Numbered from the stretch's first letter, positions 34,591 through 56,952 are shown. The stretch: DNA of 61,246 nucleotides from an uncultured Planctomycetales bacterium (GCA_964373335.1 CAYJUK010000001.1:719-61964), one strand, 5' to 3'. The notes: generated by a model from the letters alone, not told the origin. A program made the numbers and translations.

Positions 34591-35348
34591 ATGTTGTCCT
34601 GATCATGGCTAAAGAAGGAAGTCTGGGCCTTCCGGGGAAAAACATATGGAAGATTAAGGAGAAAGGGACATTGCTTGAGTGGACGATCTCGGATGGCCGG
34701 CAATCCAAACTCGTTGATCGGGTTTTTGTCAGTACTAATGGGGAGAAGATCGCTCGTATCGCTCAAGAGGCCGGGGCTGAGGTGATCAGGAGAGAAGATG
34801 AGTTAGCCAAGAATGAAAAATTCCTGGAAGGTGTGGATCATGCCATCAGGACAATCAAAACATTCCATCCCTCGTTGGCTGTAATTGCGATTCCGCAATG
34901 CGTGGTTCCTTTCCGGGATCCTGATATCTTTGACCGCTGCATCTCGTTTTTATTGGAGAATAAGGCATATGATTCCGCGATCACGATTCGGAATGTGGGA
35001 TTTATCCCGGAGGCCTTAATGAAGATTGAGGGAGAAGATCTCATCCCTTATTTCCCTCACACGCAGGCCAACGTCTCCGGCTCCCGGCAAGACAGCTCCG
35101 GTTATGAGATTGATCATGCAGTAGAATGTTTTCGTTATGAGTCCTGGTTGAATCGAGAAAAAGGTATCCGGCCGTGGAATTATTTGGGGCGTAAGATCAA
35201 GGGAATCAAACAGTATTTTCATAATCCCAATTGCTTTGTCGATGTCCATGAGATCGATGACATCCGCTGGCTGGAATTTATTATTGATCATTGGGGATGC
35301 CAAGGGATGAAGTCTGCGACTTTAAGGAAAGATTATACTTGTTCTTAA
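34587..35348 (+). CDS. acylneuraminate cytidylyltransferase-family protein (third CMP-NulO-synthetase-like gene)
   Basis: GTGA overlap with the upstream gene. VVLIMAKEGSLGLPGKNIWKIKEKGTLLEWTI resembles the NeuA N-terminus. Confidence 0.72.
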   Translation: MNVVLIMAKEGSLGLPGKNIWKIKEKGTLLEWTISDGRQSKLVDRVFVSTNGEKIARIAQEAGAEVIRREDELAKNEKFLEGVDHAIRTIKTFHPSLAVIAIPQCVVPFRDPDIFDRCISFLLENKAYDSAITIRNVGFIPEALMKIEGEDLIPYFPHTQANVSGSRQDSSGYEIDHAVECFRYESWLNREKGIRPWNYLGRKIKGIKQYFHNPNCFVDVHEIDDIRWLEFIIDHWGCQGMKSATLRKDYTCS

Positions 35349-35493
35349 TGAAAACTTCGCACAAAACGGCGAAGTTTTCATTAAACCCCAATTTTGCAAT
35401 ACAAAATGTGGGGTTAAACCCCAATTCAACACCCGGGTGCTGAATTGGGGTAAACAAGCATTTCCTAAATACGAAATTTTGATTAATAGGTGG
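35334..35493 (+). repeat. left copy of a long inverted repeat; composite of three hairpins
   Basis: Hairpin 1 has a 16-bp perfect stem (35345-35360 / 35369-35384). Hairpin 2 is at 35384-35415 (AACCCCAATTTTG..CAAAATgTGGGGTT). Hairpin 3 has an 11-bp perfect stem (35418-35428 / 35441-35451). Its reverse complement recurs at 56829-56952. Confidence 0.85.
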
Positions 35494-35498
35494 GATAG

Positions 35499-36443
35499 AT
35501 GTCAAAAGGGAAATTATTTATATCAACGACCACATTTGGGCTCTGTGATCCAATGCCTTTATTGAAATTAAAAAAGGCAAAGATCAATTTTTCCTTGAAT
35601 CCTTTAAAAAGGACATTAACCACCGCGGAGCTCATCAATTTTCTGGATGGATCAAATTATCTGATCGCGGGAACGGAAAGAATTACCCGGGAAGTCTTTC
35701 GCCAATGTCCTCATCTGGAATTCATCTCACGCTGTGGCAGCGGAATCGATAACATTGACCTTAAGGCGGCGGAACAATATAATGTTTCAATTTCCTCAAC
35801 CCCGGAAGCGCCGGTTGGGGCAGTGGCCGAACTGACGCTTGCTTTCATATTGAATACATTAAGAAATATCAATTCCGCCGATCGGATGTTGCGAGAGGGG
35901 AAGTGGCAGAAGCCCATGGGAAATCTCCTCTTTGGGAAGAAGATTGGGATTCTTGGATTCGGCAGGGTTGGCAGACGATTGGCCCATTTATTGCAGCCTT
36001 TCGAGGTACAGTTTTTGATCCACGAGATCATGCCTCCAAAGATTGTCAAGGGGCTGAAAAATCTCCAATTTTTATCACTCAGAGAGGTTTGTAAGCAAGC
36101 TGATATTTTGACAATTCATTTGCCTTACTCTTTCAAGGTTCATCATCTGATCAATCAGAGGACTTTAAGTTTGATGAAAAAGGATTTGATATTGATCAAT
36201 ACCTCCCGGGGAGAGATTGTGGATGAACAGGCCTTGGCCGATGCCCTTTCACAAAAGAAAATCAAAGCAGCTGCCTTGGACGTATTCGAGCAGGAACCTT
36301 ATTCCGGCCCGTTGACACAGTTTGAAAACGTTCTTCTAACTCCGCATCTGGGAGCTTATACGAAAGAAACACGTGTCGCGATGGAGCTAAAGGTTGTAGA
36401 GAACGTTTTAGATTATCTTCAGAGGCGCCCCGCCAATGATTAA
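35499..36443 (+). CDS. D-isomer-specific 2-hydroxyacid dehydrogenase (phosphoglycerate dehydrogenase/hydroxypyruvate reductase-like)
   Basis: NAD motif KIGILGFGRVGRRLAHLL, then INTSRGEIVDEQAL and TPHLGAYT (catalytic His region). Confidence 0.82.
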   Translation: MSKGKLFISTTTFGLCDPMPLLKLKKAKINFSLNPLKRTLTTAELINFLDGSNYLIAGTERITREVFRQCPHLEFISRCGSGIDNIDLKAAEQYNVSISSTPEAPVGAVAELTLAFILNTLRNINSADRMLREGKWQKPMGNLLFGKKIGILGFGRVGRRLAHLLQPFEVQFLIHEIMPPKIVKGLKNLQFLSLREVCKQADILTIHLPYSFKVHHLINQRTLSLMKKDLILINTSRGEIVDEQALADALSQKKIKAAALDVFEQEPYSGPLTQFENVLLTPHLGAYTKETRVAMELKVVENVLDYLQRRPAND

Positions 36444-37092
36444 GGCTATTATCTTAGATTTTGACGGGATTATTCTAGAGACCAATAGGATTAAGCTCAA
36501 TGGATTCTTGCATTTGTTTCGAGACTATCCTTTGAAAATTCGAAGAAGGATTAGAGATTTACATCTGAATAATGGAGGGGTTTCCCGATTTAAGAAATTC
36601 CGAATCATTTATCATGAGTTTTTGAAAGCACCTTTAATCCCTAAGGAAGAAAAGCGCTTAGGAGAAGAATTTTCCTCATATTGCTTCCAACAGGTCTTAA
36701 AAGCCCCTTATGTAAAAGGCATAAAGGTATTTTTAAATTGGGCTTACAGAAGGTATAATTTATTCATTGTCTCAGCCACTCCAGAGGCCGAAATCAGAGA
36801 GATCGTAAAGCGAAGAAAATTAAATAAATTTTTCAAATCTGTGTATGGATCACCCCATCCCAAAGAAGCCCTTTGCCGTAAGATTATCAAGAAGAATAAA
36901 TTTAAAAAAGAAGACGTATTGTTTATTGGGGACTCTCTGAGTGATCTCAGAGGGGCGGAGGCCAATCAGGTGGATTTTGTTGTGAGGATTCATGAGGATA
37001 ATAAAAAATTATTCAAGAATAAGGAGATTCTTCGAATTAAAAATTTTGTCAATTTTCCAGCCCGATTGAGAAAATCTTATGAAGAAAAATAA
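36436..37092 (+). CDS. HAD-superfamily phosphatase
   Basis: Motif I IILDFDGIILET (DxD), motif II VSATP, motif IV FIGDSLSD. Confidence 0.78.
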   Translation: MIKAIILDFDGIILETNRIKLNGFLHLFRDYPLKIRRRIRDLHLNNGGVSRFKKFRIIYHEFLKAPLIPKEEKRLGEEFSSYCFQQVLKAPYVKGIKVFLNWAYRRYNLFIVSATPEAEIREIVKRRKLNKFFKSVYGSPHPKEALCRKIIKKNKFKKEDVLFIGDSLSDLRGAEANQVDFVVRIHEDNKKLFKNKEILRIKNFVNFPARLRKSYEEK

Positions 37093-38014
37093 ATTGAAAA
37101 TCGTTGTCTTTGGGGGATCGGGATTTTTAGGCCGTTATCTTGTCGAAGCCCTTTTGCCGGAAGGCCATGAGGTGACCGTCTTTGATCTTAAACAATCAAG
37201 GGTGGAGGAGCAAGGGGGCAGATTTATTCATGGAGACATTATTGATCGTAAAAGGGTGGCCCCTGCCTTAAAAGGGGTGGATGTGGCCTACAATCTGGCG
37301 GCTATTTCCGATATCGATGAATGTATCCAAAATCCGGTTGAGGCCGTGAGACAAAACATCCTGGGAAATACGATCATCCTGGATGAATGTGTTAAGTCCC
37401 AGGTGAAGAGATTTATCCTGGCCAGCACATTGTATGTTTATTCCTCCTCGGGAGGAATCTATCGATCCACCAAACAGGCGTGTGAGTCCATTGTGGAAGA
37501 TTATCATAAATATTATGACCTCGATTTTACGATCTTAAGATACGGGACCCCTTACGGACCGGGAGCCAATGGGAACAACAGTGTTTATCGATTTTTAAGA
37601 CAGGCGATTGAGGAAAAGAAGATCGAATACCGCGGCACCGGGAATGAGATGCGGGAATATATTCACGCCCATGACGCCGCCTTGTTAAGCATCAAAGTGC
37701 TTGAGGAACAGTACCGGAATGAACGCGTGATCCTTTCCGGCCCCCATCCTATTAAGATCAGTGATTTTTTTATGATGATTAATGAGATTTTTGGTAATAC
37801 CTTGGAGATTCAATATGTGAATAACGAGAAGAAAATCCCGGAAAGACATTACCAGATGACGCCGTATTCTTATAATCCCAAGATAGCCAAAAAATTAGTC
37901 GGTCAGTCTTATCTGGACCTCGGGCAGGGCATCCTGGATTGCATTGAGGGCATTAAACAAAAAATCCCTGTGTCCTCGGCAGACCTCAATCAGACCTTCC
38001 CACAATTAAAATGA
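37079..38014 (+). CDS. NAD-dependent epimerase/dehydratase (extended SDR)
   Basis: IVVFGGSGFLGRYL and YRSTK (YxxxK). Confidence 0.82.
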   Translation: MKKNKLKIVVFGGSGFLGRYLVEALLPEGHEVTVFDLKQSRVEEQGGRFIHGDIIDRKRVAPALKGVDVAYNLAAISDIDECIQNPVEAVRQNILGNTIILDECVKSQVKRFILASTLYVYSSSGGIYRSTKQACESIVEDYHKYYDLDFTILRYGTPYGPGANGNNSVYRFLRQAIEEKKIEYRGTGNEMREYIHAHDAALLSIKVLEEQYRNERVILSGPHPIKISDFFMMINEIFGNTLEIQYVNNEKKIPERHYQMTPYSYNPKIAKKLVGQSYLDLGQGILDCIEGIKQKIPVSSADLNQTFPQLK

Positions 38015-38769
38015 AAGAGATCCGCCATATCTGTTTGGATAAAGATGGAACCCTCATCGATGTTCATCTCTATTGGTCGTCCATTATTCACAAACGCTCA
38101 TTAAAAATCCTTGAACAATATTCAATCTCCAGGGAATATCTAGGTGATTTATGCCTGGCGATGGGGATTGATCTTCCTCGGCAGAAGATCATTAAGGATG
38201 GGCCGGTGGGGTATAAACCGCGCCAGATCGTGATCGAGGCGGCTGTCCGAACTCTCAAAGGATTAAATAAAGCCGCCACCTTTCGTCTGGTCAGCGAATT
38301 ATTTGAAGCTGTTGACCGAGAGATGCAGCAGAGGGAAGATTATCAAATAAAGGTTTTACCGAATATTGGACCTGCCTTGAAGGTTATGAAGGAACTGGAT
38401 TTGAAAATCTCCATATACACCTCAGACCGTTTAGAGAATCTGAAAAGCATTATGCGAAAATTGAAGCTAGAAACTTTTTTTGATGGATTGATTGGAGGAG
38501 ATTTAGTCAAGAATCCCAAACCGGATCCGGAAGGGTTCTTACTGGCCTGTGAGGCGGTAGGTGTTTCTTTAGAGCATTCCATTTATGTCGGTGATACTGT
38601 GGATGACATGCAGATGGCCAAGCTGTCTTCAGATGGTCAGGGATGGGGAGTAACGACGGGTCTGTGTTCTCAGAAAGAGTTGCTGAAGCACACACCGTAT
38701 GTTTTCCCTTCTTTACTGGCTATGAGTGATCATTTGATGAAAGGACGCAACCGGTGTATAACGCATTAG
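38011..38769 (+). CDS. HAD-superfamily phosphatase (phosphoglycolate-phosphatase-like)
   Basis: ATGA overlap. ICLDKDGTLIDV (DxDGT), IYTSD, KPDPEGF, YVGDTVDD. Confidence 0.8.
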   Translation: MKEIRHICLDKDGTLIDVHLYWSSIIHKRSLKILEQYSISREYLGDLCLAMGIDLPRQKIIKDGPVGYKPRQIVIEAAVRTLKGLNKAATFRLVSELFEAVDREMQQREDYQIKVLPNIGPALKVMKELDLKISIYTSDRLENLKSIMRKLKLETFFDGLIGGDLVKNPKPDPEGFLLACEAVGVSLEHSIYVGDTVDDMQMAKLSSDGQGWGVTTGLCSQKELLKHTPYVFPSLLAMSDHLMKGRNRCITH

Positions 38770-39623
38770 TCAAAATCGTCTGCCGAGATGAGCACAAGAT
38801 GATTTTCCGGGTTTATCCTGACGCGATCAAGATCAAATACCAGGCCGGTCAGTATGGGGCCTTAGGCCTCAGTAACCATGTCAATCGGATTGATCGAGAA
38901 ACCTTGTTCCGAAAGAATGGTGAGCTCCTGATCAAAAGGGCTTATTCCCTCTCCAGTCCAATCCTGGATGAACAGGATCACCTCTTGGATCCTTCCCACT
39001 TGAATTATTATGAATTCTATGTGGATTTGGTCTTAGCCGATGAGGAGTCAAAACCCCGTCTTTCTCCGCGGCTATTTTTCCTTAATGACAATGATCGTAT
39101 TTATGTTGGCCCCAAGATCGTTGGGCATTATACCTTACAGACAAGGGAAAAAGAGAGGAATGTCCTCTTTATTTCAACGACAACCGGAGAGTCTCCTCAT
39201 AATTCCATGATCTTGGAACTCTTGAAAAATAATGAAGCCATGGCTATGAGCAATCTTGTTGTCAGTGAAAAGGGCTGGATATCGGCCTATCATAATGTTC
39301 ATAGGCGTCTTATGAAACTGATTCCTCATTATAAATATATAACCTTTCAGAATGATGCGGGTTTTAGGAATTTAGAAACCTTTTTAGAACAGTGTCTGCG
39401 AGATTCGCGTTTTTCTCAAGAGGCCATGGGATGGGAGGTTAATGCAAAGAATACGCATATTTATCTTTGCGGGGATCCCCGGATGATCGGAGCACCGTTA
39501 AAATTAGGTGGATGGAAGTATGAATACCCGGATTATGGCTTAATGAGATTATTGCAGAAGTTTAAATTTCAGCCGTCCACAAGGTTCCAATTGGGCAATG
39601 TCAGTTTTGAATCCTATTGGTAG
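38754..39623 (+). CDS. ferredoxin-NADP(+) reductase-like flavoenzyme
   Basis: RAYSLSS (the RxYS FAD motif), FISTTTGESP (NAD(P) GxG-like) and YLCGDPRMI. GTG start overlapping the upstream gene by 16 nt. Confidence 0.7.
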   Translation: MYNALVKIVCRDEHKMIFRVYPDAIKIKYQAGQYGALGLSNHVNRIDRETLFRKNGELLIKRAYSLSSPILDEQDHLLDPSHLNYYEFYVDLVLADEESKPRLSPRLFFLNDNDRIYVGPKIVGHYTLQTREKERNVLFISTTTGESPHNSMILELLKNNEAMAMSNLVVSEKGWISAYHNVHRRLMKLIPHYKYITFQNDAGFRNLETFLEQCLRDSRFSQEAMGWEVNAKNTHIYLCGDPRMIGAPLKLGGWKYEYPDYGLMRLLQKFKFQPSTRFQLGNVSFESYW

Positions 39624-39629
39624 GAGAGA

Positions 39630-40688
39630 ATGATGGATCGATTTGAGTTAGAGAAAAAGATTCTATCCCAAGGGCATTTTTTCAAGTTGATTTGCGGGGC
39701 TGGTAATGAGGATGCCGAGGAAGTCTATAAGCTCACCCTAGTCTATGCCTTGGCTGGTGCCCTGGGCGTGGATGTCTCAGCCAAACCGCAGGTCGTCACC
39801 TCGGCGAAAAGAGCGGTTTTGAAGGCGAGATCCCTGGCTCCACAATTCGGTATCCAGAAATTTGTTGATCCCTATATCACTGTTTCAGTTGGGATGCCGG
39901 GAGATCAGCATGTGCGTAAGGCCCATATCATTACCGAGAATTGCACCGAATGCAATGCCTGTATTCCTGTTTGTCCAACGGATGCGATTCCTAAAGAACT
40001 TGTCATCATTCGTCAGCGATGTATTGGCTGCGGGGCATGTTCTGTCGCTTGTCAAGATGATGCCATTGGTTATACGCATAATCAAATCGATATGGAGCGA
40101 GTGTTGAATGAATGCATCGAAGCCGGCGCTGAGAATATTGAATTACACTCGAATATCCCAGATCATGAACCCACCCTGGTGGAATGGGAATTGATCAATA
40201 AGCTTTTACCGGACAGCTACGTGAGTGTGTGCACTGATCGAGGATATTTATCCAATCATGAACTCATGAAACGAATTAAGATGATGTTAGAGGTAGCCCC
40301 AGGAAGGATGATTGTGCAAGCAGATGGTATCCCTATGAGCGGAGGAAAGGATGATTACAATACCACACTGCAGGCTGTCGCCACAGCCGATATCGTGGCT
40401 AAAAGTCAGCTTCCTGTTTTTATCCTCCTCTCGGGAGGGACGAATTCAAAGAGTATCGAGCTATCCAAGGCGTGCGGTGTCCCTTACGCCGGTGTTTCTA
40501 TTGGAACATTTGCCCGGCATCGGGTTTATCCCATTATTAATCAGCCGGAATTTCCTGAACAGGGTCTTCTGAAGCAGGCTGTGCAAGTGGCCCGTCAACT
40601 GGTAGCGACCTGTTATCCCTTTGATAAGGAATATGAAGATTCACGGACAGAATTAGCCAGGAGAACATATACCGCGATTGAACCCTAG
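39630..40688 (+). CDS. 2x[4Fe-4S] ferredoxin-domain protein, LdpA-like
   Basis: FKLICGAGNEDAEEV..VDVSA N-terminus plus CTECNACIPVCP and CIGCGACSVAC clusters. GGAGAG lies upstream of the ATG. Confidence 0.72.
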   Translation: MMDRFELEKKILSQGHFFKLICGAGNEDAEEVYKLTLVYALAGALGVDVSAKPQVVTSAKRAVLKARSLAPQFGIQKFVDPYITVSVGMPGDQHVRKAHIITENCTECNACIPVCPTDAIPKELVIIRQRCIGCGACSVACQDDAIGYTHNQIDMERVLNECIEAGAENIELHSNIPDHEPTLVEWELINKLLPDSYVSVCTDRGYLSNHELMKRIKMMLEVAPGRMIVQADGIPMSGGKDDYNTTLQAVATADIVAKSQLPVFILLSGGTNSKSIELSKACGVPYAGVSIGTFARHRVYPIINQPEFPEQGLLKQAVQVARQLVATCYPFDKEYEDSRTELARRTYTAIEP

Positions 40689-40755
40689 AGAAACGTGGTA
40701 TTATCCCTCGTTTTTCTGGGATCAAAGAAATTTTTAATATTGCGAACTTAATGAA

Positions 40756-41586
40756 ATGAGAGGGATAGAGTTGACAACGAACAGTCAAGCGAGTCTTAAA
40801 GAGCGATTGAAGAAAGGAGAGGTTGTTTTAGGAACTTGGGGGACTCTTCCTTCGGCTTCGGTGATGAATGTCCTCGGCCTCAGTGGTTTGGATTTTGTGA
40901 TCATTGATATGGAACACGGGCCTATTGATATAGGACAGGCAGAACAGATGGTGCAAACTTTAGAGGTCAGTGGAACAGTCCCTATTATTCGTGTCTCTAC
41001 CAACGATCCGTCATTAATCCTAAGGGCCCTGGATATTGGTGCCCAGGGAGTTCAGATCCCCCATATCTCAACGGAAGAGGATGCCCGACTGGCTGTTCGC
41101 AGTGCTAAATATGCCCCGGAAGGAGAGCGGGGATTCACACCATTCACTCGAGCTGGGCAGTATGGATTAGCCGCGGAAGGATATGCGGAAAAGGCCAATG
41201 AACAGACAATGGTGATTTTGAATGTCGAGGGGGTAAAAGGATTACATAATCTTAAAGAAATCCTTAAGGTGAATGATATTGATGTTGTTTTCATCGGGCC
41301 GTATGATCTGTCTCAATCTTTAGGCAAAACCGGACAGGTAGAAGATCCTAAGATCGTAGATTATATCCGTTCCAGTGTGCAATTGATGAAAAGTCAGGGG
41401 GTGGCGTGCGGTTCTTTTGCGGGGAATGGGGAATTTCTTAAAATCCTCATGGATTGCGGAGTACAGTATATTACTTTTTCCGTCGATTCTGCGGTGATGA
41501 TGAAGGCCTATCAGGATATTCTCTCTCAATTTCATATGATGAAGAAAGGATCTAGGCGTGGACAATCGATTCCCAACAGAACTTGA
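40756..41586 (+). CDS. HpcH/HpaI-family class II (pyruvate-dependent) aldolase
   Basis: VLGTWGTLPSASVMNVLGLSGLDFVIIDMEHGP, then GAQGVQIPHISTEEDA and FIGPYDLS. Confidence 0.8.
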   Translation: MRGIELTTNSQASLKERLKKGEVVLGTWGTLPSASVMNVLGLSGLDFVIIDMEHGPIDIGQAEQMVQTLEVSGTVPIIRVSTNDPSLILRALDIGAQGVQIPHISTEEDARLAVRSAKYAPEGERGFTPFTRAGQYGLAAEGYAEKANEQTMVILNVEGVKGLHNLKEILKVNDIDVVFIGPYDLSQSLGKTGQVEDPKIVDYIRSSVQLMKSQGVACGSFAGNGEFLKILMDCGVQYITFSVDSAVMMKAYQDILSQFHMMKKGSRRGQSIPNRT

Positions 41587-43282: not shown

Positions 43283-43340
43283 GAAGGTAGGGAAGAGGAA
43301 GACCATTCTTCGCTGTCCAACTCCTTTTCTGGGAATCATA

Positions 43341-44075
43341 ATGAGAGTGATCGGTGTTATACCAGCGCGTTTAAAATCTACCCGGCTTCCCAATAAGGCC
43401 CTGGTGGATATTGAAGGGCTCCCCATGATTGTCCATGTCTTTAAACGAGCGGCGTTGTCTCAAGTCCTCGATGATGTCTTTGTCGCCACGGATAGTCCGG
43501 AGATTTATCAAACAGTCGTTCGTTTTGGCGGGAAGGCGGTTATGACAGCTTCTCACCATCAAACTGGTACGGATAGAGTTGCAGAAGCGGTTTCGTCTTT
43601 AACAACAGATATTGTTGTTAACATTCAAGGGGATGAACCTTTATTGGTCCCAGAGCATATTGATCAGGTTGTTGAACCCCTCTTGAGGGATAAGAATATT
43701 CAGGTGGCTATTTTAGTGGCTCCTTTTTCGAGAAAAAATAGTCCTTCGGATATTAAGGCCGTTCTGGATTTAGACCATAATATATTATATTGTTCCCGGA
43801 CAGATCTCCCTAGCCAGGCCCGGAATCCGGTGGAAATGATGTGGAAGATGTGTTTCATCGTCCCCTTTCGAAAGGATTTTCTTCTTCAATATACTTCCTG
43901 GTCTCAGACACCTTTGGAAAAGATTGAATTGAATGAATATTTACGGATTTTGGAACATAGTCATAAAATTAAAGCGGTTTGTGTACAGAAGGCCCATATC
44001 AGCGTCGATACTCCTCAGGATCTTGAAGAAGTTAAAGAGATCATGAAACAGGATCCCATCAAGCCCATGTACTGA
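43341..44075 (+). CDS. KdsB-family 3-deoxy-ulosonic acid cytidylyltransferase
   Basis: VIGVIPARLKSTRLPNKALVDIEGLPMIVHV, HQTGTDRVAEA, VNIQGDEPL. Confidence 0.82.
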   Translation: MRVIGVIPARLKSTRLPNKALVDIEGLPMIVHVFKRAALSQVLDDVFVATDSPEIYQTVVRFGGKAVMTASHHQTGTDRVAEAVSSLTTDIVVNIQGDEPLLVPEHIDQVVEPLLRDKNIQVAILVAPFSRKNSPSDIKAVLDLDHNILYCSRTDLPSQARNPVEMMWKMCFIVPFRKDFLLQYTSWSQTPLEKIELNEYLRILEHSHKIKAVCVQKAHISVDTPQDLEEVKEIMKQDPIKPMY

Positions 44076-44132
44076 GCTCCATACATACCTTAAGATAAAA
44101 CTGTTAATCAAAGAAGCAATATTTATCACCTT

Positions 44133-46032: not shown

Positions 46033-46036
46033 AAAC

Positions 46037-46064: not shown

Positions 46065-46101
46065 CATTTTTAATATATATAGAAAATAAGGTTAATCATT
46101 T

Positions 46102-47658
46102 ATGAGTTTAAAAATACTGCTTATTTACCCCAATTTTAGAGGCATGAACATGCTGCCGCCAGGAATTTCCCTTCTCTCCGCTGTTCTTAAGCAGAGAGGT
46201 TTTCGGGTGAAACTTTTTGATACCACATATTATGATTCCATCGAAGGCAAGTCTCTGGATTCGGATGCCTCTAAAAGTGACCGACTCATGGCCCGTCCAT
46301 TTAAGATGCCCAATGAGATCTCCTATACACGAACAGATTGCTTTGAAGATTTTGAGAAAGAAGTATTAGATTTCCAACCGGATCTATTGGCCTTATCCTG
46401 CACGGAAGATATGTTCTCACTGGGGATTAAATTGTTAAAGAAGGCCAGATATTTAAATATCCTGACCATTGCGGGTGGTGTTTTTCCTACCTTTGCCTCT
46501 AAGCTTGTCCTCAGTTTCCCAGAGGTAGATATCGTTTGTAAAGGAGAAGGAGAGGATGCCTTAAGCACTTTGTGCGAACGTCTTCAGAAGGGCGAACAAT
46601 TCGATGATGTCAGTAATTTATGGATTAAAAAGAATGATGGAACTATCAAGATTAACCCCACCCGAATGGTGGACATGGATTCTAATCCCCTGATAGATAT
46701 GTCAATCTTTGAGGAGGCACGATTCTACCGCCCCATGGGGGGGAAAGTTTACCGGATGTTTCCGGTAGAGACTCATCGGGGTTGTCCCTATACATGTGCC
46801 TTTTGCAATTCTCCTTCCCAAATGGAGTTATATAAGAAAGAGGAGGGGAAGTCCTATCTTCGCCGGAAATCCTTTAAGAATATGTATCAGGAGCTTCTCT
46901 TTTATAAAAACGTAATGAAGGCAGAGTATCTCTATTTTTGGGCTGACACTTTTTTCTCCTGGAAGAAGGGAGAATTTGAAGAATTTTCAGAGATGTATAA
47001 AGATATTCGCCTCCCCTTTTGGTGCCAGACCAGGATCGAAACCGTTACCCCGGAACGTTTGATTTTATTAAAAGGGATTGGATGCGCGCGGATATCATTT
47101 GGGATAGAACATGGGAACGAACAGTTCCGCAGACAATGGTTAAAACGGCCGGTTTCAAATGAATTAATGATTAAAAATTTTAAGTTTGTCAGAGACAGCG
47201 GCATCCCATTCAGTGTGAATAATATTGTTGGGTTTCCTCATGAGACCTATGACTTGGCTTTTGATACGGTCCGTTTTAATCGGTTCATTGAAGCCGATGA
47301 CCGGAACGCGTATCATTTTACTCCTTTTCACGGCACACCCTTGCGAGATGAATGTGAACGATCCGGTTTTATTAAATCAGAAGACATTTGCCAGTCGTTT
47401 GTTATCGGAGATGCAATCTTAGATATGCCTCAATTTCCTAAAAAGACTGTACAAAGACTGATTAAAACTTTTAATATGTATGTGAAATTTCCCGAATCCC
47501 GATGGTCAGAAATTAAAAAGGCTGAAGAAGATTCTGCGGAGGGGAAAAAAATTTATCAGGCTTTAAAAGTAGAATTTAAGGATCGTTTTTTTAATATCCG
47601 CGATGAAAGTTTTGAAGCCGCTGCTATGGAAAAAGTTCTTACGGCCCCAATGAACTAA
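46102..47658 (+). CDS. cobalamin-binding-domain radical SAM enzyme (class B), paralogue of 16418
   Basis: LKILLIYPN..LFDTTYY, CKGEGEDAL, and CxxxCxxC in HRGCPYTCAFCNS. Confidence 0.8.
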   Translation: MSLKILLIYPNFRGMNMLPPGISLLSAVLKQRGFRVKLFDTTYYDSIEGKSLDSDASKSDRLMARPFKMPNEISYTRTDCFEDFEKEVLDFQPDLLALSCTEDMFSLGIKLLKKARYLNILTIAGGVFPTFASKLVLSFPEVDIVCKGEGEDALSTLCERLQKGEQFDDVSNLWIKKNDGTIKINPTRMVDMDSNPLIDMSIFEEARFYRPMGGKVYRMFPVETHRGCPYTCAFCNSPSQMELYKKEEGKSYLRRKSFKNMYQELLFYKNVMKAEYLYFWADTFFSWKKGEFEEFSEMYKDIRLPFWCQTRIETVTPERLILLKGIGCARISFGIEHGNEQFRRQWLKRPVSNELMIKNFKFVRDSGIPFSVNNIVGFPHETYDLAFDTVRFNRFIEADDRNAYHFTPFHGTPLRDECERSGFIKSEDICQSFVIGDAILDMPQFPKKTVQRLIKTFNMYVKFPESRWSEIKKAEEDSAEGKKIYQALKVEFKDRFFNIRDESFEAAAMEKVLTAPMN

Positions 47659-48043
47659 TAGAAAAGCGAAGCAAACCATTTCGAGGCAGAATTCCCTCAC
47701 AATTTAAAGCTGCTTTTTTCCCCTGCAGTAAATTTTATATTGATCATTTTTTCCTCGCTACCTGTTTGCCGAACAGGCAGGTGGGGTCCGTAGGTAAATG
47801 AAAAATAATTTTTAAAGAAGATTATATTGATTTCAACGGGTTTATAAACTTAAAAATCATATTTTGTAAGCCCGCGGAATAGAGTTTGTTAGCCTTAGTT
47901 CCGCAGTTTGGCAGAAAGAATTTTTGAAGGCTAAATTTTCCACGACAGCCAATACAGTCTTTTATCGAGTGCGATTTAAACTGTGGAACCAGGGTGAGAT
48001 GAAGAATCCCTTGGGTCTTAAGTCTTTCTTAAAGAATTAGATA

Positions 48044-49027: not shown

Positions 49028-49030
49028 ACT

Positions 49031-49885: not shown

Positions 49886-49896
49886 AGTCCATCCTC

Positions 49897-50871
49897 ATGA
49901 ATCAATTTAATTCCATGGGTGACAACGAGTCTGAACTGATCAATGGCTATCCCATATTCAAACGACTTGTGGAAAGAGTCTTTTTAAAATCTCCTATGCA
50001 AAGGAAATATCTGAGTCATCACCTTGCCCAAAGAGACATCACGTTCTTCAGGCGTGCCGAGGGATTTGCCGGAAGATTCATAATCTATCTTGATGACATT
50101 GGCCTCTCGATCGACCAGGCCGTTGATGCCTATCTTGAGGTATGCAGAGATATGCTCACCAGCCAGATGAGATTTAAAAAAACACAAAAATATTCGTGTC
50201 GCAGCGCCAACGAAGCCAATGGTCTTGTATATTCGTCGACTGACAAAATGACGAACTATATGATCGGCCTGCTTTTGTCTCAGTTTATGTGGCCGAATCA
50301 TTATGAAATGTATGATTTTTTTATCGAGCAAAGTCAAAAGCTCATCAACATTAAGACAGTCCTCGAAATTGGCCCCGGGCATGGTCTTTATCTTGCCGAG
50401 TCCGTTTCTCTCTTTCCCGATGCCCAATTTGACGCCATTGATATCAGTCCGACTTCGAAGAAGCTCTGTGAGGCCCTTGTTTTTCATCTAACCGGAAACA
50501 TCCGATGCAAAGTTCAGCTTAAAGACATTAATCAGCTTGAGGATTGCGGTCCCTATGATTATATTGTCATGGGGGAGGTTTTAGAACATCTCGATGACCC
50601 GAGATCTGCCTTGAGGAAAATCCATAATTTATTAAATGAAGACAGCCATTTTTTTATAACAACCTGCGCCAATGCCCCAGCCATTGATCACGTTTATTTG
50701 TATGATAGTGTTGGGCATATCCAACGCGATATCCGTATGAGCGGTTTTGCACCTCTCTTCGAGCTGGCATTACCCGTTGAAGATGTCCCAGAGGATCAGT
50801 GGGAAGAACAGAAGGTCGAAGTCAACTATGCGGCCATGTATAAGAAGTCTAAGATGACCGATCAAAACTGA
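49897..50871 (+). CDS. class I SAM-dependent methyltransferase with an N-terminal extension
   Basis: VLEIGPGHGLYLAE (motif I), AIDIS, YDYIVMGEVLEHLDDP. Confidence 0.8.
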   Translation: MNQFNSMGDNESELINGYPIFKRLVERVFLKSPMQRKYLSHHLAQRDITFFRRAEGFAGRFIIYLDDIGLSIDQAVDAYLEVCRDMLTSQMRFKKTQKYSCRSANEANGLVYSSTDKMTNYMIGLLLSQFMWPNHYEMYDFFIEQSQKLINIKTVLEIGPGHGLYLAESVSLFPDAQFDAIDISPTSKKLCEALVFHLTGNIRCKVQLKDINQLEDCGPYDYIVMGEVLEHLDDPRSALRKIHNLLNEDSHFFITTCANAPAIDHVYLYDSVGHIQRDIRMSGFAPLFELALPVEDVPEDQWEEQKVEVNYAAMYKKSKMTDQN

Positions 50872-50932
50872 TGTTGACCGCTGAGCAGGGGAATCCGTAT
50901 TTAGAAATGAACGGCTTTTAAGGAAAGCATTG

Positions 50933-52897
50933 ATGATCAACGATCAAGTTGTGAGTAAAAATAACTTATCTATGGATCAGGGCTTGTTCAAAAAAGGCAT
51001 TTTGATCAGATCTGTTGAAAATAAACTTTTGCAGTTATTTTCAGAAGGAAAACTCAATGGGACTGTCCATACGTGTGTGGGCCAGGAATTTTCCGCTTTG
51101 GCTTTTGCCGGTCAATTATCCAACAAAGATATTGTTTTCTCAAATCATAGGTGTCACGGACACTATATATCGTTTACTGGTGATTATGAAGGTCTGTTGG
51201 CCGAATTGATGGGTAAAAGAAGCGGTGTGTGTAGTGGTATCGGAGGGAGCCAGCATCTTTGTAAAGACAATTTTTACTCGAATGGAATTCAGGGCGGGAT
51301 TGTTCCCGTTGCTGCCGGAATGGCCTTAGCCGCAAAACTCAATGGAAACCGGAACATTGTTGTCGTTTATATCGGAGAGGGAATGTTGGGAGAAGGGGTT
51401 GTCTACGAAACTTTCAATATCATATCCAAGTGGGGTCTCCCTATTTTAATTGTGTGCGAGAACAATTATTATGCCCAATCAACGCCAATGAGGTTTAATT
51501 TAGCCGGTGATATTCTAAAACGCGCCGAGGCTTTTGGGATTCAGACGTATTATAACGACATCTGGAATACGGAAGGATTGATGCAGGCAGCCTGTCAGTC
51601 GATTTCATACGTGCGCGAATATCAAAAACCCGTTTTTCATTTAGTTGAGACTTATCGGCTTAATCCACATTCTAAGGGTGATGATGACCGCGACCCTGCT
51701 GAAATTAACCTTTTTAAAGAAAAAGATCCTATCAATATCTTTGCCAGAGAAAATAAACAATTATTTGAGAAAATCCAATTGGAGACAGAACATCAGGTCA
51801 ATGCAGCGGTTGAAAAGATATTGAAACAATCTGAATTAGATATCGGCGATTATTATGAACCATTGAAGGAAAGACCTCGGGATCCATGGGAATCCCTTGA
51901 AGAAATTGACTTTAGGCAAGTTGAGCTTATTAATGCTTTCTTTAAAGAACAAATGCAACGCAATCGTTCGATCATTTTTATCGGTGAAGATGTTTTATCT
52001 CCTTATGGTGGGGCCTTTAAGATTGCCCGAGATTTATCAGATTTGTTTCCTGATAGAGTTTTTTCAACGCCGATCAGTGAAGCAGCCATTATCGGAATTT
52101 CGAATGGGTTGGCCATAAAAGGTTTTCGACCCTTTACCGAGATCATGTTCGGTGATTTTATCACTCTGGGGATGGACCAAATTGTTAATCATGCGGCTAA
52201 ATTTTACGATATGTACAACAAGCAGGTAAAATGTCCCATTGTCATTAGAACGCCGATGGGAGGAAGACGCGGTTATGGGCCGACACATTCACAGACTCTG
52301 GATCGTTTTGTTACTGGTATCCCTAATGTGAAAACGATAGCTTTAAATACATTGACGAATCCTAAAATAATCTACCAGAATGTCTTGGAGAAAGAGGAAC
52401 ATCCTGTTATTGTGATTGAAAATAAACTTGACTATGGCAGCAAGATTGCCAAAAAGAAGCTTAAACATTACAGGTATGAAAAGACCACCGGGGATTATCC
52501 CGTTGTCAGGATCCGTCCCTTCCAAGCTGTTCCCAATGCAACTCTTCTTTGTTATGGCGGCATGGTTAACATTGTCCTTGATTGTTTAGAACCGTTATTT
52601 GTGAATTTTGAATTAAAATCTGAGGTGATCGTTTTAACGAAGATATCACCCATTGAATATTCTGAGATTATCGAATCCGTCAGAAAGACGAAAAGGTTAT
52701 ATGTCATTGAAGAAGGAACGATGGCTGGAGGTATTGGCAGTGAAGTGGTCGCTTCTGTAGCTGAGATTTTAACAGAATATGTTACGATAAAACGCATTGC
52801 CGCATTACCGGTTCCGATTCCATCGGTCAGGTCATTGGAGAATCAGGTCTTGCCTAATGTCGAGACAATTCTTCGTTCCATTGCAGAAACTTTATAG
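50933..52897 (+). CDS. 2-oxoacid dehydrogenase E1 component, fused alpha and beta subunits (TPP-dependent)
   Basis: Alpha part: GTVHTCVGQEF and the TPP motif YIGEGMLGEGVVYETFNIISKWGLPILIVCENN. Beta part: IFIGEDVLSPYGGAFKI..STPISEAAIIGISNGLA. The ATG at 50933 follows AAGGAAAG. Confidence 0.82.
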   Translation: MINDQVVSKNNLSMDQGLFKKGILIRSVENKLLQLFSEGKLNGTVHTCVGQEFSALAFAGQLSNKDIVFSNHRCHGHYISFTGDYEGLLAELMGKRSGVCSGIGGSQHLCKDNFYSNGIQGGIVPVAAGMALAAKLNGNRNIVVVYIGEGMLGEGVVYETFNIISKWGLPILIVCENNYYAQSTPMRFNLAGDILKRAEAFGIQTYYNDIWNTEGLMQAACQSISYVREYQKPVFHLVETYRLNPHSKGDDDRDPAEINLFKEKDPINIFARENKQLFEKIQLETEHQVNAAVEKILKQSELDIGDYYEPLKERPRDPWESLEEIDFRQVELINAFFKEQMQRNRSIIFIGEDVLSPYGGAFKIARDLSDLFPDRVFSTPISEAAIIGISNGLAIKGFRPFTEIMFGDFITLGMDQIVNHAAKFYDMYNKQVKCPIVIRTPMGGRRGYGPTHSQTLDRFVTGIPNVKTIALNTLTNPKIIYQNVLEKEEHPVIVIENKLDYGSKIAKKKLKHYRYEKTTGDYPVVRIRPFQAVPNATLLCYGGMVNIVLDCLEPLFVNFELKSEVIVLTKISPIEYSEIIESVRKTKRLYVIEEGTMAGGIGSEVVASVAEILTEYVTIKRIAALPVPIPSVRSLENQVLPNVETILRSIAETL

Positions 52898-52908
52898 AAG
52901 ATAGTTCC

Positions 52909-54111
52909 ATGAAACCTTTACAGTCAATAATTGTTCCCCATGAGATCGTCAATGATGAATTTGTGACAATTGTCCAATGTCATTTTAACAACGGGGACAG
53001 GATTAAAGAAGGAGATCCCCTCATCACCATTGAGACCTCAAAGATGGTCGAAGATCTTTATGCGGCATTTGGCGGTTATATTTATTATCTGTGCCAAGAA
53101 GGATCTGAAATCAAGATTGGCGAAGTCATTATAGAAATCTATGATCAGCCTCTTATTCAGAGGAGTGCTCTTACTCAAGAAACAGTGGAAAAAAGAGAAA
53201 CCTCTTTGCCGGAGGACGATGTTATTTTTTCTCAATCGGCCTTGCGGATGATCGAAGAACTTAAGATGAGTAAAGAGAAGTTTAAAGGTCGGACTTTTGT
53301 GAGTACAGAAGATGTCAGGTTTGTTCAACGTCAAATCAGCCAAAATCAGTTTGCCTGGCGGGGAGCTTCGGAATCAACCCATTCGACCGTCCCCGGCCTA
53401 AAGTCCGGGGACTGCTCAGGGTTGACACTGAGCGGCGCCGAAGTGTCAAATTTTGAAAGGATGACGGCGAGTCCCGATATCGAATTTTTAAAGATTAGTC
53501 CCATTAAGAAAAGGGAGATTGAAAATCTTAATGCTGTGCAATCATCGCATCTGAGTAACGTGGTGAGTATGCTCATTGATGTGACTTCTTTTATTGACAA
53601 GTTGAAGCGTGAGAGTAAATTTTTTAAAAATTCTTTACTTCTGATCGTGATTTCGAAATTGCCGGCGTTGTTGGAAGAGTATCCGGAATTTAACGCCTTC
53701 TATAAAGATGGGACAATAGGTTTTTATAAGAATATTGCAATAGGATTTGCCGTGAACTTAGGGGATGGATTGCGGGTCTTGAAGTTACCCGTTACGAACG
53801 AAAAAAGTATTGCCGAGATAGAAATAATGATTTTTGACATGATCAAACAATATCTTGACAAAAAGTTAACCCCTCAGGACTTGGCCAGGGTCACTTTTAC
53901 GGTCACCGACCTTTCGAATGAGGGCATTCATTTTTTTATCCCGCTTATACCCAAAGGCCAGTCCGCGATCTTAGGCATTTCTGCCATTGATGAGAAGCTG
54001 CAGCGTAGCATAGTATCGCTTTCTTTCGATCACCGTGTGACGGATGGCAAAAAAGCCAGCGAGTTTTTGCGAAAATTAAAGAAGAGAATCGAGGCTGACT
54101 CGGTTGGTTGA
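52909..54111 (+). CDS. lipoyl-domain acyltransferase (2-oxoacid dehydrogenase E2-like)
   Basis: N-terminal lipoyl/biotinyl-type domain with ITIETSKMVEDL. C-terminal catalytic domain with SFDHRVTDGKKASEF (DHRxxDG). Confidence 0.8.
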   Translation: MKPLQSIIVPHEIVNDEFVTIVQCHFNNGDRIKEGDPLITIETSKMVEDLYAAFGGYIYYLCQEGSEIKIGEVIIEIYDQPLIQRSALTQETVEKRETSLPEDDVIFSQSALRMIEELKMSKEKFKGRTFVSTEDVRFVQRQISQNQFAWRGASESTHSTVPGLKSGDCSGLTLSGAEVSNFERMTASPDIEFLKISPIKKREIENLNAVQSSHLSNVVSMLIDVTSFIDKLKRESKFFKNSLLLIVISKLPALLEEYPEFNAFYKDGTIGFYKNIAIGFAVNLGDGLRVLKLPVTNEKSIAEIEIMIFDMIKQYLDKKLTPQDLARVTFTVTDLSNEGIHFFIPLIPKGQSAILGISAIDEKLQRSIVSLSFDHRVTDGKKASEFLRKLKKRIEADSVG

Positions 54112-54178
54112 CTTAAGAAAGAAACAAAAAATGTGAGACCGTTCAGTTTTATTGATTCTTAAAAGGTGGAGATAAAAA

Positions 54179-54427
54179 ATGCAAGAGCAAATACGACAAA
54201 TCATGTGCCAAATTTTTCATGTTCCCTTTGGACACATCACAGATGAGACCAAAGTCGAGACGATTGAATCATGGGATTCCTTAAATCATATCAATCTGAT
54301 CTTGGCCTTAGAGCTGGAGTTTAGGACAACGTTCTCTCCAGAGGAAATGATCAAAATGGTCAGTTTTCAAGAGATTCTGGAAATTTTAAAACAAAAGACG
54401 CAGGCTTGTGAAATAAGAGAAAAATAA
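54179..54427 (+). CDS. acyl carrier protein
   Basis: 82 aa. WDSLNHINLILALE carries the DSL phosphopantetheine-attachment motif. GGTGGAG lies upstream of the ATG. Confidence 0.8.
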   Translation: MQEQIRQIMCQIFHVPFGHITDETKVETIESWDSLNHINLILALELEFRTTFSPEEMIKMVSFQEILEILKQKTQACEIREK

Positions 54428-54537
54428 AATTATACACAATCACGTTGAAGATTACAGACTTCCGATCTCCCATGATCAACAAACGCGTAAATTCTTCCGG
54501 GAATTCGGTAAATTTTGGGATCACTTGATCAGACCCT

Positions 54538-54567
54538 TTGACAGCCTACATCATTTCTGGTGAAAAT
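54538..54567 (+). promoter_or_regulatory. weak candidate promoter (TTGACA, 18 nt, GAAAAT) in the 235-nt gap after the ACP gene
   Basis: TTGACA at 54538-54543 and a poor -10 at 54562-54567. Confidence 0.2.
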
Positions 54568-54662
54568 GCCTTTCCCAAACGCAAGGACAGGGATTTTTTT
54601 ACCGCGCTTGATATCGATGAGTCTCAAAATATTCCTACTTATTCTTTTGTAAGAGGTCATTT

Positions 54663-55559
54663 ATGAACAATCATTGTGATTATCTTTTAATTGGCGCTAA
54701 TGGATTGATCGGTAGTGCTGTGGCTGAAGAGTTGGATTCCCAATATAGCTGGGTGGGGACTTCCTTTAAGCGGAGTTCAGGCCGTTTGCATTTTTTGGAT
54801 ATTCTGGATAAAGAAAATTTAAAAAATGTTTTGCAGGTCTTGAAGCCAAAATATGTTGTGCTCGCGGCGAACCTTTCGGGCGGAACGGAATTTGCCCAAA
54901 CTCACCCGGATGTGGCCAAAACATTTTATTACGATGCGACAAAAAACTTAGGGGAACTCTGTTTAACCCAAAAAGTACGTTTGATTTTTATCTCCACGGA
55001 ATGTGTCTTTGATGGGAAAAGAGAGATTTATCAGGAGGATGATGAACCCAATCCGCTGAATCTCTACGGCCAATGGAAAGCCGAAAGCGAAATGTGGATA
55101 AAAAAAAATTTAGAAAATTATATTATTGTACGTACGATATCTGTCTTTGGCTGGCAACCCGAAACCGTGACCCCCAACGCTGTCATGAAAGCCTATTTTG
55201 CCATTTTGAAGAAGGAAAAAATCTTTGTTCCTACATACCGGTGGGTGACGCCAACATATGTTCACGATTTGGCCAAGGCCTTGGTTGAATTAAATCTTTC
55301 TGGTGCTCAAGGAATTTATCATGTCGCTGGCAGCACGTACATCAATCGCTATGAGTGGCTTAGAAAAGTATGCGGCGTTATGGAGTGGGATTCTTCCTGG
55401 CTTTGCCCGCAAAATGAAATTCATCCCGGGGCTACACCTTATCCGCTCAAAATAAGGCTCGATACGCAAAAATTCCGCCTTTGTCATAAGACAAGATTGC
55501 ACAGCCTTGAGGAATCTATGTTCATGTTGAAAAATGATATTTTTACGACCAGCCGGTAG
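54663..55559 (+). CDS. RmlD-like NAD(P)-dependent sugar reductase (dTDP-4-dehydrorhamnose reductase family)
   Basis: YLLIGANGLIGSAV, STECVFDG, YGQWK (YxxxK). Confidence 0.72.
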   Translation: MNNHCDYLLIGANGLIGSAVAEELDSQYSWVGTSFKRSSGRLHFLDILDKENLKNVLQVLKPKYVVLAANLSGGTEFAQTHPDVAKTFYYDATKNLGELCLTQKVRLIFISTECVFDGKREIYQEDDEPNPLNLYGQWKAESEMWIKKNLENYIIVRTISVFGWQPETVTPNAVMKAYFAILKKEKIFVPTYRWVTPTYVHDLAKALVELNLSGAQGIYHVAGSTYINRYEWLRKVCGVMEWDSSWLCPQNEIHPGATPYPLKIRLDTQKFRLCHKTRLHSLEESMFMLKNDIFTTSR

Positions 55560-55561
55560 CG

Positions 55562-56629
55562 ATGAATGCGCACCCCAAACTAAGCGTTGTGATGACGACT
55601 TACAATGCCGAGCGGTATATCGAAGAGGCAGTTCAAAGTATACTCAATCAGAGTTTTTCTGATTTTGAATTTATTATCGTTGATAATGACAGCCAGGATG
55701 AGACTTCGCTTAGGATGTTATCTTTTCATGACCCCCGGATTATTTTTATTCAGAATAATCGAAACATGGGGCAGACCAAAGCCCTTAATATCGGCATCGG
55801 TAAAAGCCAGACACGGTATATCGCGAGAATGGATGCTGATGATGTGGCGGAACCCGAACGTCTAGCGATTCAATATGAATTTCTGGAAAATCATCCTGAT
55901 ATAGCTTTGGTGGGGACTGCGTGGCAGTATATCGATCAAAACGGTAAATCCCTCCGCCGTGTTAAAGTTCCTACGGATCCTTTAACCATTCGATGTTATC
56001 TTTTAGCCTCTGGGGATTTGACTTCATGGTGTGTTGGGCATCCAACAGTTATGATGCGTAAATCAGCATTGGAAGAAGTGGGATTATACAATGAGCAAGA
56101 AAGTTTTGATGGTTATCCGCAGGATTACGCCTTATGGAGGGTGCTCTCGGCGAAATACAGCTTTGCTAATGTTGATCGGCCGCTTTTAAAATATCGTATA
56201 TTAAAAAATTCTGAATCAAGGAAATTTTTTGATAAATCATGCGAGTATCGCTATAACATTACACTTAAATATATTACCTCTTGCTTGACCAATTTCAATG
56301 AATACGAGAGAATTTCTCTCGCCAATATGCTGGAATACCGATCACAAGGATCAAAAAAGGATGGGGAAAATATTTTTGAAATTTTTGACCGCTATTTTGA
56401 TGTATCTGCAGGAAAATTCGGCGCCTTGGATAAAACGAAAAATTTTCGAAATCAAATGAAACTCTATTATCTTCCAAAATTATTTTTAACCAACAAGTGT
56501 CTATCACTAAAAGAGTTCATCGGGTTGGTTGTCCACTATCCAGTTTATCTTTTTGATATCAAATTCTATCGGAAGGTCATTAAAGTCATGCTGCAAAGTT
56601 TACTATTACAGCGTTTCAAAAATTCATGA
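55562..56629 (+). CDS. family 2 glycosyltransferase
   Basis: LSVVMTTYNAERYIEEAVQSILNQS, IIVDNDSQD, ARMDADD. Confidence 0.86.
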   Translation: MNAHPKLSVVMTTYNAERYIEEAVQSILNQSFSDFEFIIVDNDSQDETSLRMLSFHDPRIIFIQNNRNMGQTKALNIGIGKSQTRYIARMDADDVAEPERLAIQYEFLENHPDIALVGTAWQYIDQNGKSLRRVKVPTDPLTIRCYLLASGDLTSWCVGHPTVMMRKSALEEVGLYNEQESFDGYPQDYALWRVLSAKYSFANVDRPLLKYRILKNSESRKFFDKSCEYRYNITLKYITSCLTNFNEYERISLANMLEYRSQGSKKDGENIFEIFDRYFDVSAGKFGALDKTKNFRNQMKLYYLPKLFLTNKCLSLKEFIGLVVHYPVYLFDIKFYRKVIKVMLQSLLLQRFKNS

Positions 56630-56828
56630 ACAGGTTCTATCTTAAACGGCAAGAGGTTTGCCTGTCGGTTACAAAAAACAGATGCAAATTTTGTTAATAT
56701 GGTTATAATGCCAACTGAAAGTCTAGCCCTCCGTGATTTTAGTTTTTGGACACATCTATTATCCACGTGAGGGCTACTTTATTAATATTTTATTCAAAAT
56801 GAATTTCTAAAGTCGATTTGAACCTTTA

Positions 56829-56952
56829 CCACTTATTAATTGTGATTTCGTAATAGGAAATGCTTGTTTAACCCCACATTTTGCCTCGCAAGATTGGGGT
56901 TTAATGAAAACTTCGCTGTTTTATAAAAAAAATTTCATTAAGAACATGTATA
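56829..56952 (-). repeat. right (inverted) copy of the long repeat seen at 35334-35493
   Basis: The reverse complement shares identical runs with the left copy: gcgaagttttcattaaaccccaat (24 nt), caaaatgtggggttaaac (18 nt), aagcatttcct (11 nt) and tgttcttaatgaaa (14 nt). It lacks hairpin 3, and the left arm of hairpin 1 is degenerate. Confidence 0.85.

Follow-up and report, generated by a model that had tools for sequence, protein, structure and literature searches.

We analyzed a 61,246-nt stretch of DNA (the window, to which all coordinates refer) in which two inverted copies of a hairpin-rich repeat, here designated E1, bracket a block of 19 genes on the + strand (35499–56629; assigned with Pfam, NCBIfam, and synteny with relatives). 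The two repeats are very likely independent insertions, in opposite orientations, of one non-autonomous MITE (miniature inverted-repeat transposable element) of ~125–165 nt. The initial annotation had offered the insertion of the same miniature element twice in opposite orientation as one of three explanations, next to the boundaries of an acquired cassette and an inversion switch, and this is the explanation that the analysis supports: E1 is multicopy, has unrelated flanks, terminal inverted repeats, and TA at its ends, and is absent from the corresponding junction in relatives. The bracketing of the 21-kb block is regarded as a coincidence: on two occasions the element inserted at one of the rare non-coding places in a very tightly packed one-strand glycan locus. 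MITEs are ~50–800 bp long and contain no transposase gene (PMC11602168, PMC3184786), and E1 resembles them in its size and lack of a transposase, its terminal inverted repeats, its dispersed copies, and its stable fold.

The source of the DNA is an uncultured Candidatus Omnitrophota bacterium, because the closest homologues of its PseB and cytidylyltransferase among the GTDB genomes are encoded by Candidatus Omnitrophota metagenome-assembled genomes (MAGs), with 65–75% protein identity. The relatives used for comparison were mostly Omnitrophota MAG loci (L-numbered below; 1.3–1.6 Mb in total). Protein families were assigned by Pfam and NCBIfam profile scans of the + strand open reading frames (ORFs) of the 61-kb window. 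The metagenome data consisted of six runs (X1–X6) from two studies in the form of Logan contigs, which break inside the repeat; the contigs found by exact-protein look-up to carry locus proteins were 0.9–2 kb long, and two of them terminated within the repeat. Depth denotes the word depth of the contigs placed on a stretch of the window at a likeness cut-off of ≥90% or ≥80%.

The repeat pair is real and far beyond chance. In a repeat search, no inverted pair of the window was longer than the arms 35363–35419 and 56866–56922 (57 nt, 91% complementary), and BLASTN of the left unit against the window recovered the right copy in two pieces (87 nt with 85% identity, E 3e-20; 53 nt with 83% identity, E 2e-7). 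The global alignment of the left and right copies contained 107 matches, 20 mismatches, and 38 gap columns, giving 84% identity over 127 aligned bases; 36 of the 38 gap columns were accounted for by an extra hairpin of the left copy, and the longest runs of uninterrupted identity were 24, 16, 14, and 13 nt. The hairpin core AACCCCA-N-TGGGGTT occurs three times in the window, compared with an expectation of 0.02. Every identical string that the initial annotation had listed for the two inverted copies was found, and the extra hairpin that it had described in the left copy as 35 nt long was confirmed, with a length of 36 nt in the alignment.

The left copy (35334–35497, + strand) is complete and comprises 164 nt including the flanking TA (35334–35335 and 35496–35497), as delimited by the depth borders and the terminal repeats. 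Its layout is TA, head, hairpins 1–3, tail, and TA. The head begins with TACTTGTTCTTAATGAAAA and contains the terminal repeat TAC TTGTTCTTAATGAAAA; hairpin 1 (35346–35383) has a 15-bp stem, hairpin 2 spans 35384–35415, hairpin 3 (35418–35451) is an optional module, and the tail ends with TTAATAGGTGGGA, followed by TA. The terminal inverted repeats are imperfect, with 14 matches over 21 positions (19 over 30), and 5e-5 of random 164-mers of the window reach 14 over 21. The RNA fold of the left copy was calculated to be −62.5 kcal/mol (z = −7.4), and 0 of 200 shuffled sequences were as stable. The start at 35334 proposed in the initial annotation was retained, whereas the end was moved from 35493 to 35497 on the basis of the depth borders and terminal repeats, so that the distance to the ATG at 35499 is 1 nt and not 6 nt. 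In regards to the right copy (56828–56952, − strand, 125 nt), the limits were obtained from the alignment to the left copy, the depth peak, and the divergence of flanks at 56952; its head end is located 13 nt upstream of the GTG at 56966 that starts a Wzy-like gene, a refinement of the earlier 56829–56952 and 14 nt. This copy is more decayed: it has a degraded hairpin 1, lacks hairpin 3, and is shortened at the end of its tail, and its fold is weaker (−26.5 kcal/mol on the + strand and −21.1 on the − strand). At 125–164 nt, E1 contains no ORF of its own.

The two window copies are among a dozen or more copies of E1 scattered in host DNA, whose origin from the same genome we infer from depth. 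At ≥90% likeness, the depths over the repeat in four runs were 79, 60, 60, and 18, compared with 8.5, 3.5, 4.3, and 5 in the cytidylyltransferase gene; at ≥80% likeness, they were ~100 versus 8.5 in X1 and ~105 versus 4.3 in X3. The increase over E1 was ~12–25-fold and sharp, rising at 35334 and falling after 35497. On a 251-nt stretch around the left copy, 16 of the 27–28 contigs placed fit only in part, and in both X1 and X3 at least 4–5 contigs diverged at each end of E1; the flanks that were listed singly were unrelated. Over the right copy, the depth peaked at 56863–56913 (58, 34, and 56, compared with ~4–6 in the flanks), and foreign flanks diverged at 56952; this peak is lower owing to the greater distance of the right copy from the family consensus. 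The same multicopy pattern was observed in X4–X6, where an allele of E1 was present at the same site. The contigs flanking E1 copies had depths similar to that of the locus, which is consistent with one genome but is not proof. Occurrence at many unrelated sites had been named in the initial annotation as the first half of what would speak against the cassette and switch readings, and it is seen in these contigs with unrelated flanks. An element-only search of metagenome runs returned just four runs, from the same two studies. Exact and gapped scans of the GTDB representative genomes with the 24-nt core and hairpin 2 gave no matches, BLASTN of the whole of E1 against 1.3 Mb of mostly Omnitrophota loci gave no match, and the four matches of hairpin 2 in JGI metagenome contigs were all unrelated chance palindromes.

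The copies in other contigs differ in their hairpin modules. Hairpin 2 was missing in some contigs (joint 35380>35414), hairpins 2 and 3 in others (joints 35381>35451 and 35391>35445), and hairpin 3 in others again (joint 35419>AAGCATTT). The depth of hairpin 3 was approximately half that of the head and tail, and therefore approximately half of the E1 copies carry this module. The joint 35380>35414 has 13 ambiguous letters, which correspond to (T)TAAACCCCAAT, a direct repeat found at the beginning of every module; because the ambiguity coincides with this module-start repeat, modules are probably gained and lost via slippage or recombination between the 12–13-nt direct repeats. A solo hairpin-2 module, AACCCCATATTTTACATTGCAAAATTGGGGTT, was identified at 59958–59989 by its pattern and depth match. 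Its first base is also the final one of a glycosyltransferase family 1 (GT1) gene (58732–59958) and belongs to the stop codon; only these 32 nt match the internal hairpin-2 modules of other E1 copies, and the depth there rises from 2.5–4 to 15–34. At the equivalent positions 35464 and 56859, both E1 copies of the window have C in ATTTCCTA, and all other contigs of five runs have T (ATTTTCTTA). The C variant is shared although the window copies differ more from each other than the left copy differs from the family, which may reflect local copying or gene conversion.

The left junction provides information on the mode of insertion. The 3′ end of the cytidylyltransferase gene (CTP_transf_3, Pfam PF02348; 34587–35348, + strand) appears to have been altered by E1, since homologues with 65–75% identity align to residues 1–242/243 only. 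The earlier statement that the last codons and stop of this gene are inside the left copy was correct; the copy contains four codons and the stop (YTCS*, stop at 35346–35348). All E1 copies align through TA at both ends, and TA is present on both sides of the left copy. Removal of 35336–35497 gives ...AAA GAT TAG|ATG TCA... and a cytidylyltransferase of 249 aa, which compares with 242–252 aa in relatives. In the relatives, the next identified gene overlaps the cytidylyltransferase gene or follows within ~50 nt, and the E1 sequence is absent from their loci, including the equivalent junction, in relatives at 65–75% protein identity.

These observations are consistent with a model in which TA is the most likely target of E1 and is duplicated upon insertion. 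The left copy would have entered the TA belonging to the former TAG stop, which abutted the ATG of the next gene, and would have supplied a new stop, TAA, and the four extra codons, with both neighboring genes staying intact. The right copy would be the older insertion; it is more decayed and is located in a true 336-nt gap before the Wzy-like gene. A TA target is characteristic of transposases of the IS630/Tc1-like type, and by this rule the enzyme mobilizing E1 would be IS630/Tc1-like. The TA duplication and the co-transcription of E1 with the operon are inferred, and the −62 kcal/mol structure may influence how the mRNA is processed or how stable it is. The left copy may thus serve as an example of an element in a zero-spacer gene junction that broke neither gene and apparently brought its own stop. 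As an alternative target duplication for the left copy, 3 bp (GAT) were considered and dropped: a TA-flanked element of another Omnitrophota MAG (L099, described below) has TA and no 3-bp repeat, and only the TA model restores the stop. A Shine-Dalgarno (SD)-like motif, AGGTGGG, is present in the 3′ end of the left copy, 4–10 nt before the ATG at 35499. The idea that E1 routinely acts as an adapter giving an SD or start context was rejected, as the sequences next to the tails of other copies have no consistent start codon and many genes of the locus have no obvious SD.

A second repeat family, E2, was found at 18972–19116 (+ strand, 145 nt) and is likewise MITE-like; this family and the solo hairpin at 59958–59989 had been overlooked in the earlier description. 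E2 has the terminal repeats CCCCAACTCCG and CTCCAACTCCG (10 of 11 positions) and is flanked by a perfect 6-bp direct repeat, TCGAAA (18966–18971 and 19117–19122). It fills a 147-nt gap after the gene starting at 18220 and supplies the last 14 codons and stop of this gene (18220–19014); a model of its excision gave a 255-aa protein ending in HRKMAVA*. Its interior contains a CCCAATTTT...AAAATTGGGG hairpin of the same type as that of E1. The depth over E2 rose from 4–5 to 80–185 in X1–X3 (20–40 times that of the locus) with many different flanks, and the copies were 80–90% alike. E2 is more abundant than E1. Furthermore, E1 and E2 copies adjoin in other contigs, and in one X3 contig E2 lies directly against the E1 head. 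The genome is seeded with hairpin-rich MITE-like repeats, and therefore two E1 copies in 61 kb need no special explanation. Omnitrophota, which are uncultured and have very small, possibly host-dependent cells, carry at least two abundant MITE-like families; our literature search found no paper coupling MITEs with Omnitrophota. The Logan contigs bearing the locus end inside E1 or E2 repeats in all six runs, and short-read assemblies of this lineage are fragmented as a result, which is relevant to binning and to the reading of synteny.

A degenerate scan with the terminal repeat gave 10 matches, two of which were in Omnitrophota MAGs and agreed at the unspecified positions too. The E1 terminal sequence TATACTGGTTCTTAAT is therein found at L099 1132–1277 and L106 3186–4572. 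The L099 match (MAG CSMAG_1852) is a 146-nt TA-flanked element with the terminal TACTGGTTCTTAAT at both ends, forming near-perfect 18-bp terminal repeats of the form TA|TACTGGTTCTTAAT(G/C)A. It resembles E1 in its terminal sequence, TA flanks, size, and phylum, and differs in its unrelated interior without CCCCAAT hairpins and in its near-perfect terminal repeats. In L106, 25 nt of this terminal sequence directly adjoin a single-ORF insertion sequence (IS) of the IS66 family at its GTATCC... end, 64 nt from the stop of the transposase. This IS was examined as a parent of E1 and rejected: transposases 84–91% identical to that of L106 (L107–L109) are located in IS copies whose ends are GTATCC...AATGGTAAA and whose flanks differ. 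The E1-like 25 nt of L106 are therefore outside the IS; the arrangement most likely represents an IS nested in or beside a MITE.

Several points weigh against the interpretation of E1 as a MITE. No cognate IS or transposase with matching ends was found, the sole candidate being the rejected IS66-family element of L106. The hairpin module also occurs alone at 59958–59989 and within E2, which fits a REP-like module equally. The extra E1 copies are known from metagenome contigs of similar depth, and their assignment to the same genome depends on that similarity. The closest cytidylyltransferase homologue is 77% identical, and no unoccupied counterpart of the site turned up in close strains. Finally, the duplication of TA comprises 2 bp, is weak evidence when taken alone, and can be recognized only in part at the right copy, which is decayed.

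The modular hairpins raise the question of whether E1 and E2 are instead mosaics of REP or REPIN palindromes, as in BIME clusters, in which CCCCAAT...ATTGGGG units were spread by a RAYT enzyme (IS200/IS605-like). The solo hairpin directly after a stop codon, the variable number of hairpins within E1, the hairpin within E2, and the E1 and E2 copies abutting in other contigs in the manner of mosaic REP clusters are all in favor of this explanation. However, both elements carry separate terminal inverted repeats beyond the hairpins, and their ends are sharp and constant; the 13-nt direct repeats that border the modules explain how modules are lost (joint 35380>35414); and the flanks consist of a 6-bp direct repeat in E2 and of TA in E1. 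Mobility of the RAYT/IS200 type is not known to make target duplications. No RAYT gene was found in the window, and we consider an origin of this kind unlikely. It is quite unlikely, too, that E1, instead of being a selfish repeat, is kept by selection as an RNA structure with a function between cistrons (a processing site, stabilizer, or attenuator). The fold of the left copy is very stable and well beyond that of the shuffled sequences, the copy is positioned inside a long co-directional operon and gives a stop codon and an SD-like motif, and Correia and ERIC elements are known to affect mRNA cleavage or stability (PMC10969869, PMC3049150). Against such a role, the two window copies are opposite to each other relative to transcription and the antisense copy is decayed; the Rfam 15 scan at the gathering score gave no matches in the whole window; the promoter and terminator scans detected neither a + strand promoter-like site nor a terminator-like site with its T-run (U-tract) wholly inside either copy; and the flanks at the tails of other copies have no consistent start codon.

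The other two explanations concern the 21-kb block rather than the repeat itself. Some features would fit a horizontally acquired module delimited by the repeats. The chemistry that it encodes is unusual: a 2-hydroxyacid dehydrogenase, HAD phosphatases, an epimerase, an HpcH aldolase, an HMGL/MptE-like protein, and a second CMP-sugar synthetase, together with a B12-radical SAM enzyme, a deacetylase, a methyltransferase, the E1 and E2 enzyme components of a 2-oxoacid dehydrogenase, an acyl carrier protein (ACP), an RmlD-like protein, and a family 2 glycosyltransferase (GT2). Its inner gene order is unlike that of the relatives, with the 2-hydroxyacid dehydrogenase first here and the HAD phosphatase first there, and the GC content falls to 0.35–0.37 to the right of 56 kb. 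On the other hand, in six Omnitrophota MAG loci without the repeat (L086, L089, L090, L092, L093, and L094), homologues of at least seven block genes follow the cytidylyltransferase on the same strand, and in five of these (L089, L090, L092, L093, and L094) the next identified gene overlaps it or lies within ~50 nt. The seven genes, with 30–65% identity, are the 2-hydroxyacid dehydrogenase at 35499, the HAD phosphatase at 36436, the epimerase at 37079, the HpcH aldolase at 40756, the CMP-sugar synthetase at 43341, the B12-radical SAM enzyme at 46102, and the GT2 at 55562. Moreover, there is no break in GC or GC skew at 35.4 kb, and E1 is dispersed elsewhere in contigs. Since the block is linked to the left flank in relatives, the linkage is old and E1 is the newcomer. 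The block is part of the ancestral locus and not a unit defined by repeats, and the reading of the repeats as cassette boundaries, proposed in the initial annotation, is highly improbable. As to a switch, the inverted copies would flip 35.5–56.8 kb by homologous or site-specific recombination and thereby turn off 19 glycan genes. The geometry is suitable, with two inverted copies bracketing the block and a 57-nt core that is 91% alike, and there is a precedent in Neisseria, where inversion between Correia-type repeats has been reported according to work cited in PMC10969869. Nevertheless, the + strand ORFs of the window yielded no invertase, recombinase, or transposase; the profile scans matched sugar and glycan biosynthesis families alone, in agreement with the earlier remark that no recombinase was visible. 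The copies are 84% identical, share at most 24 nt of perfect identity, and differ by a 36-nt indel; the same unit is present at many sites and is not specific to the block borders; the GC skew is positive across the whole block; and the orientation of the genes relative to the left flank is as in the relatives. No recombinant joint and no chimeric tail (head of the left copy, core, and AAGCATTTCCTATTACG) were observed among the loose ends listed, although the contigs break inside the repeat and this result is uninformative. A switch has no positive evidence in its favor and is highly improbable, and it is similarly improbable that the E1 pair recombines occasionally in a RecA-dependent manner via the 57-nt, 91% identical core, flipping the 21.3-kb block; if it did, a subpopulation would carry the third sugar-modification pathway antisense to the operon, so that the surface glycan of an Omnitrophota cell would be subject to a crude phase variation driven by a MITE. 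With E1 taken as a MITE inserted twice, the bracket is structurally meaningless and should be used neither for delimiting a cassette nor for proposing a switch.

A local rearrangement of gene order coincides with the insertion point of E1. At the E1 site (35499–38014), the 2-hydroxyacid dehydrogenase gene is the one after the cytidylyltransferase gene, whereas the corresponding region of L089, L090, L092, and L094 (~10728–14745) has the HAD phosphatase in that place and the dehydrogenase three genes further on.

The window as a whole (1–61246) is a single co-directional + strand surface-glycan locus of unusual size in Omnitrophota. The locus encodes two NeuB-type synthases, at least four CTP_transf_3-type cytidylyltransferases, and PglD-, PseB-, and PseC-type enzymes; a phosphonate branch with a phosphoenolpyruvate (PEP) mutase, a thiamine pyrophosphate (TPP) decarboxylase-like enzyme, and an aminotransferase; three B12-radical SAM enzymes; the 2-oxoacid dehydrogenase E1 and E2 components with the ACP; four "surface carbohydrate biosynthesis" proteins of 600–700 aa; and glycosyltransferases, with the Wzy-like protein near the 3′ end. 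No paper linking Omnitrophota with nonulosonic acids was found in the literature search. Downstream of the GT2 gene, a terminator-like long hairpin with the stem TAGCCCTC...GAGGGCTA and a subsequent T-rich tract is present at 56718–56800. The ~60 nt across the GT2 stop (56601–56662) had a 4–5-fold depth in X1 and X2 and not in X3, and continued into GGTATATGTCCATTTATATGG in all three runs; this stretch represents either a further small repeat or a different order of the downstream sequence in a strain that occurs alongside. The region of lower GC beyond 56 kb contains the Wzy-like and GT1 genes, which may form a separate transcription unit.

We compared E1 with known families of small bacterial repeats. 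The BOX elements of Streptococcus pneumoniae are modular (boxA-boxB(n)-boxC), shorter than ~200 bp, and intergenic, and they can enter transcribed regions and modify gene ends (PMC3049150). Like BOX, E1 has conserved terminal modules and, between them, a variable number of internal modules that fold by themselves, so that their absence or multiplication leaves the remaining fold unaffected; the boxB modules form a tandem array, whereas the E1 modules are two related, non-identical hairpins, the host phylum differs, and no relation in sequence is expected. Correia elements duplicate TA at their target. These elements (Correia/NEMIS) of Neisseria are MITEs of 100–200 bp with terminal inverted repeats and are present in tens to hundreds of copies near gene starts; when transcribed they form a long hairpin, and inversions can take place between two copies (PMC10969869). 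E1 shares with them the small TA-flanked MITE structure, the position adjoining gene starts, and the hairpin fold. In contrast, Correia elements have defined promoters, an IHF site, and the properties of an RNase III substrate, and the terminal repeats of E1 are far less perfect (14/21). ERIC/IRU elements of enterobacteria are imperfect palindromes of ~127 bp that are inserted between the genes of operons, in transcribed sequence; both orientations occur, and the effects on mRNA depend on the orientation (PMC3049150, PMC10969869); they form a single long imperfect hairpin, unlike the string of hairpin modules in E1, and have no sequence relation to it. REP/BIME repeats are short palindromes with G+C stems located after stop codons, either single or in mosaics, with IS or other repeats adjacent (PMC3184786). 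REP, BIME, and REPIN sequences thus resemble E1 in the palindrome modules next to stop codons and in the mosaics, whereas E1 and E2 have their own terminal and flanking direct repeats and lengths of 125–165 nt. By sequence, E1 is a member of none of these families; by working principle, it is closest to BOX and Correia/NEMIS and shares some traits with REP/BIME.

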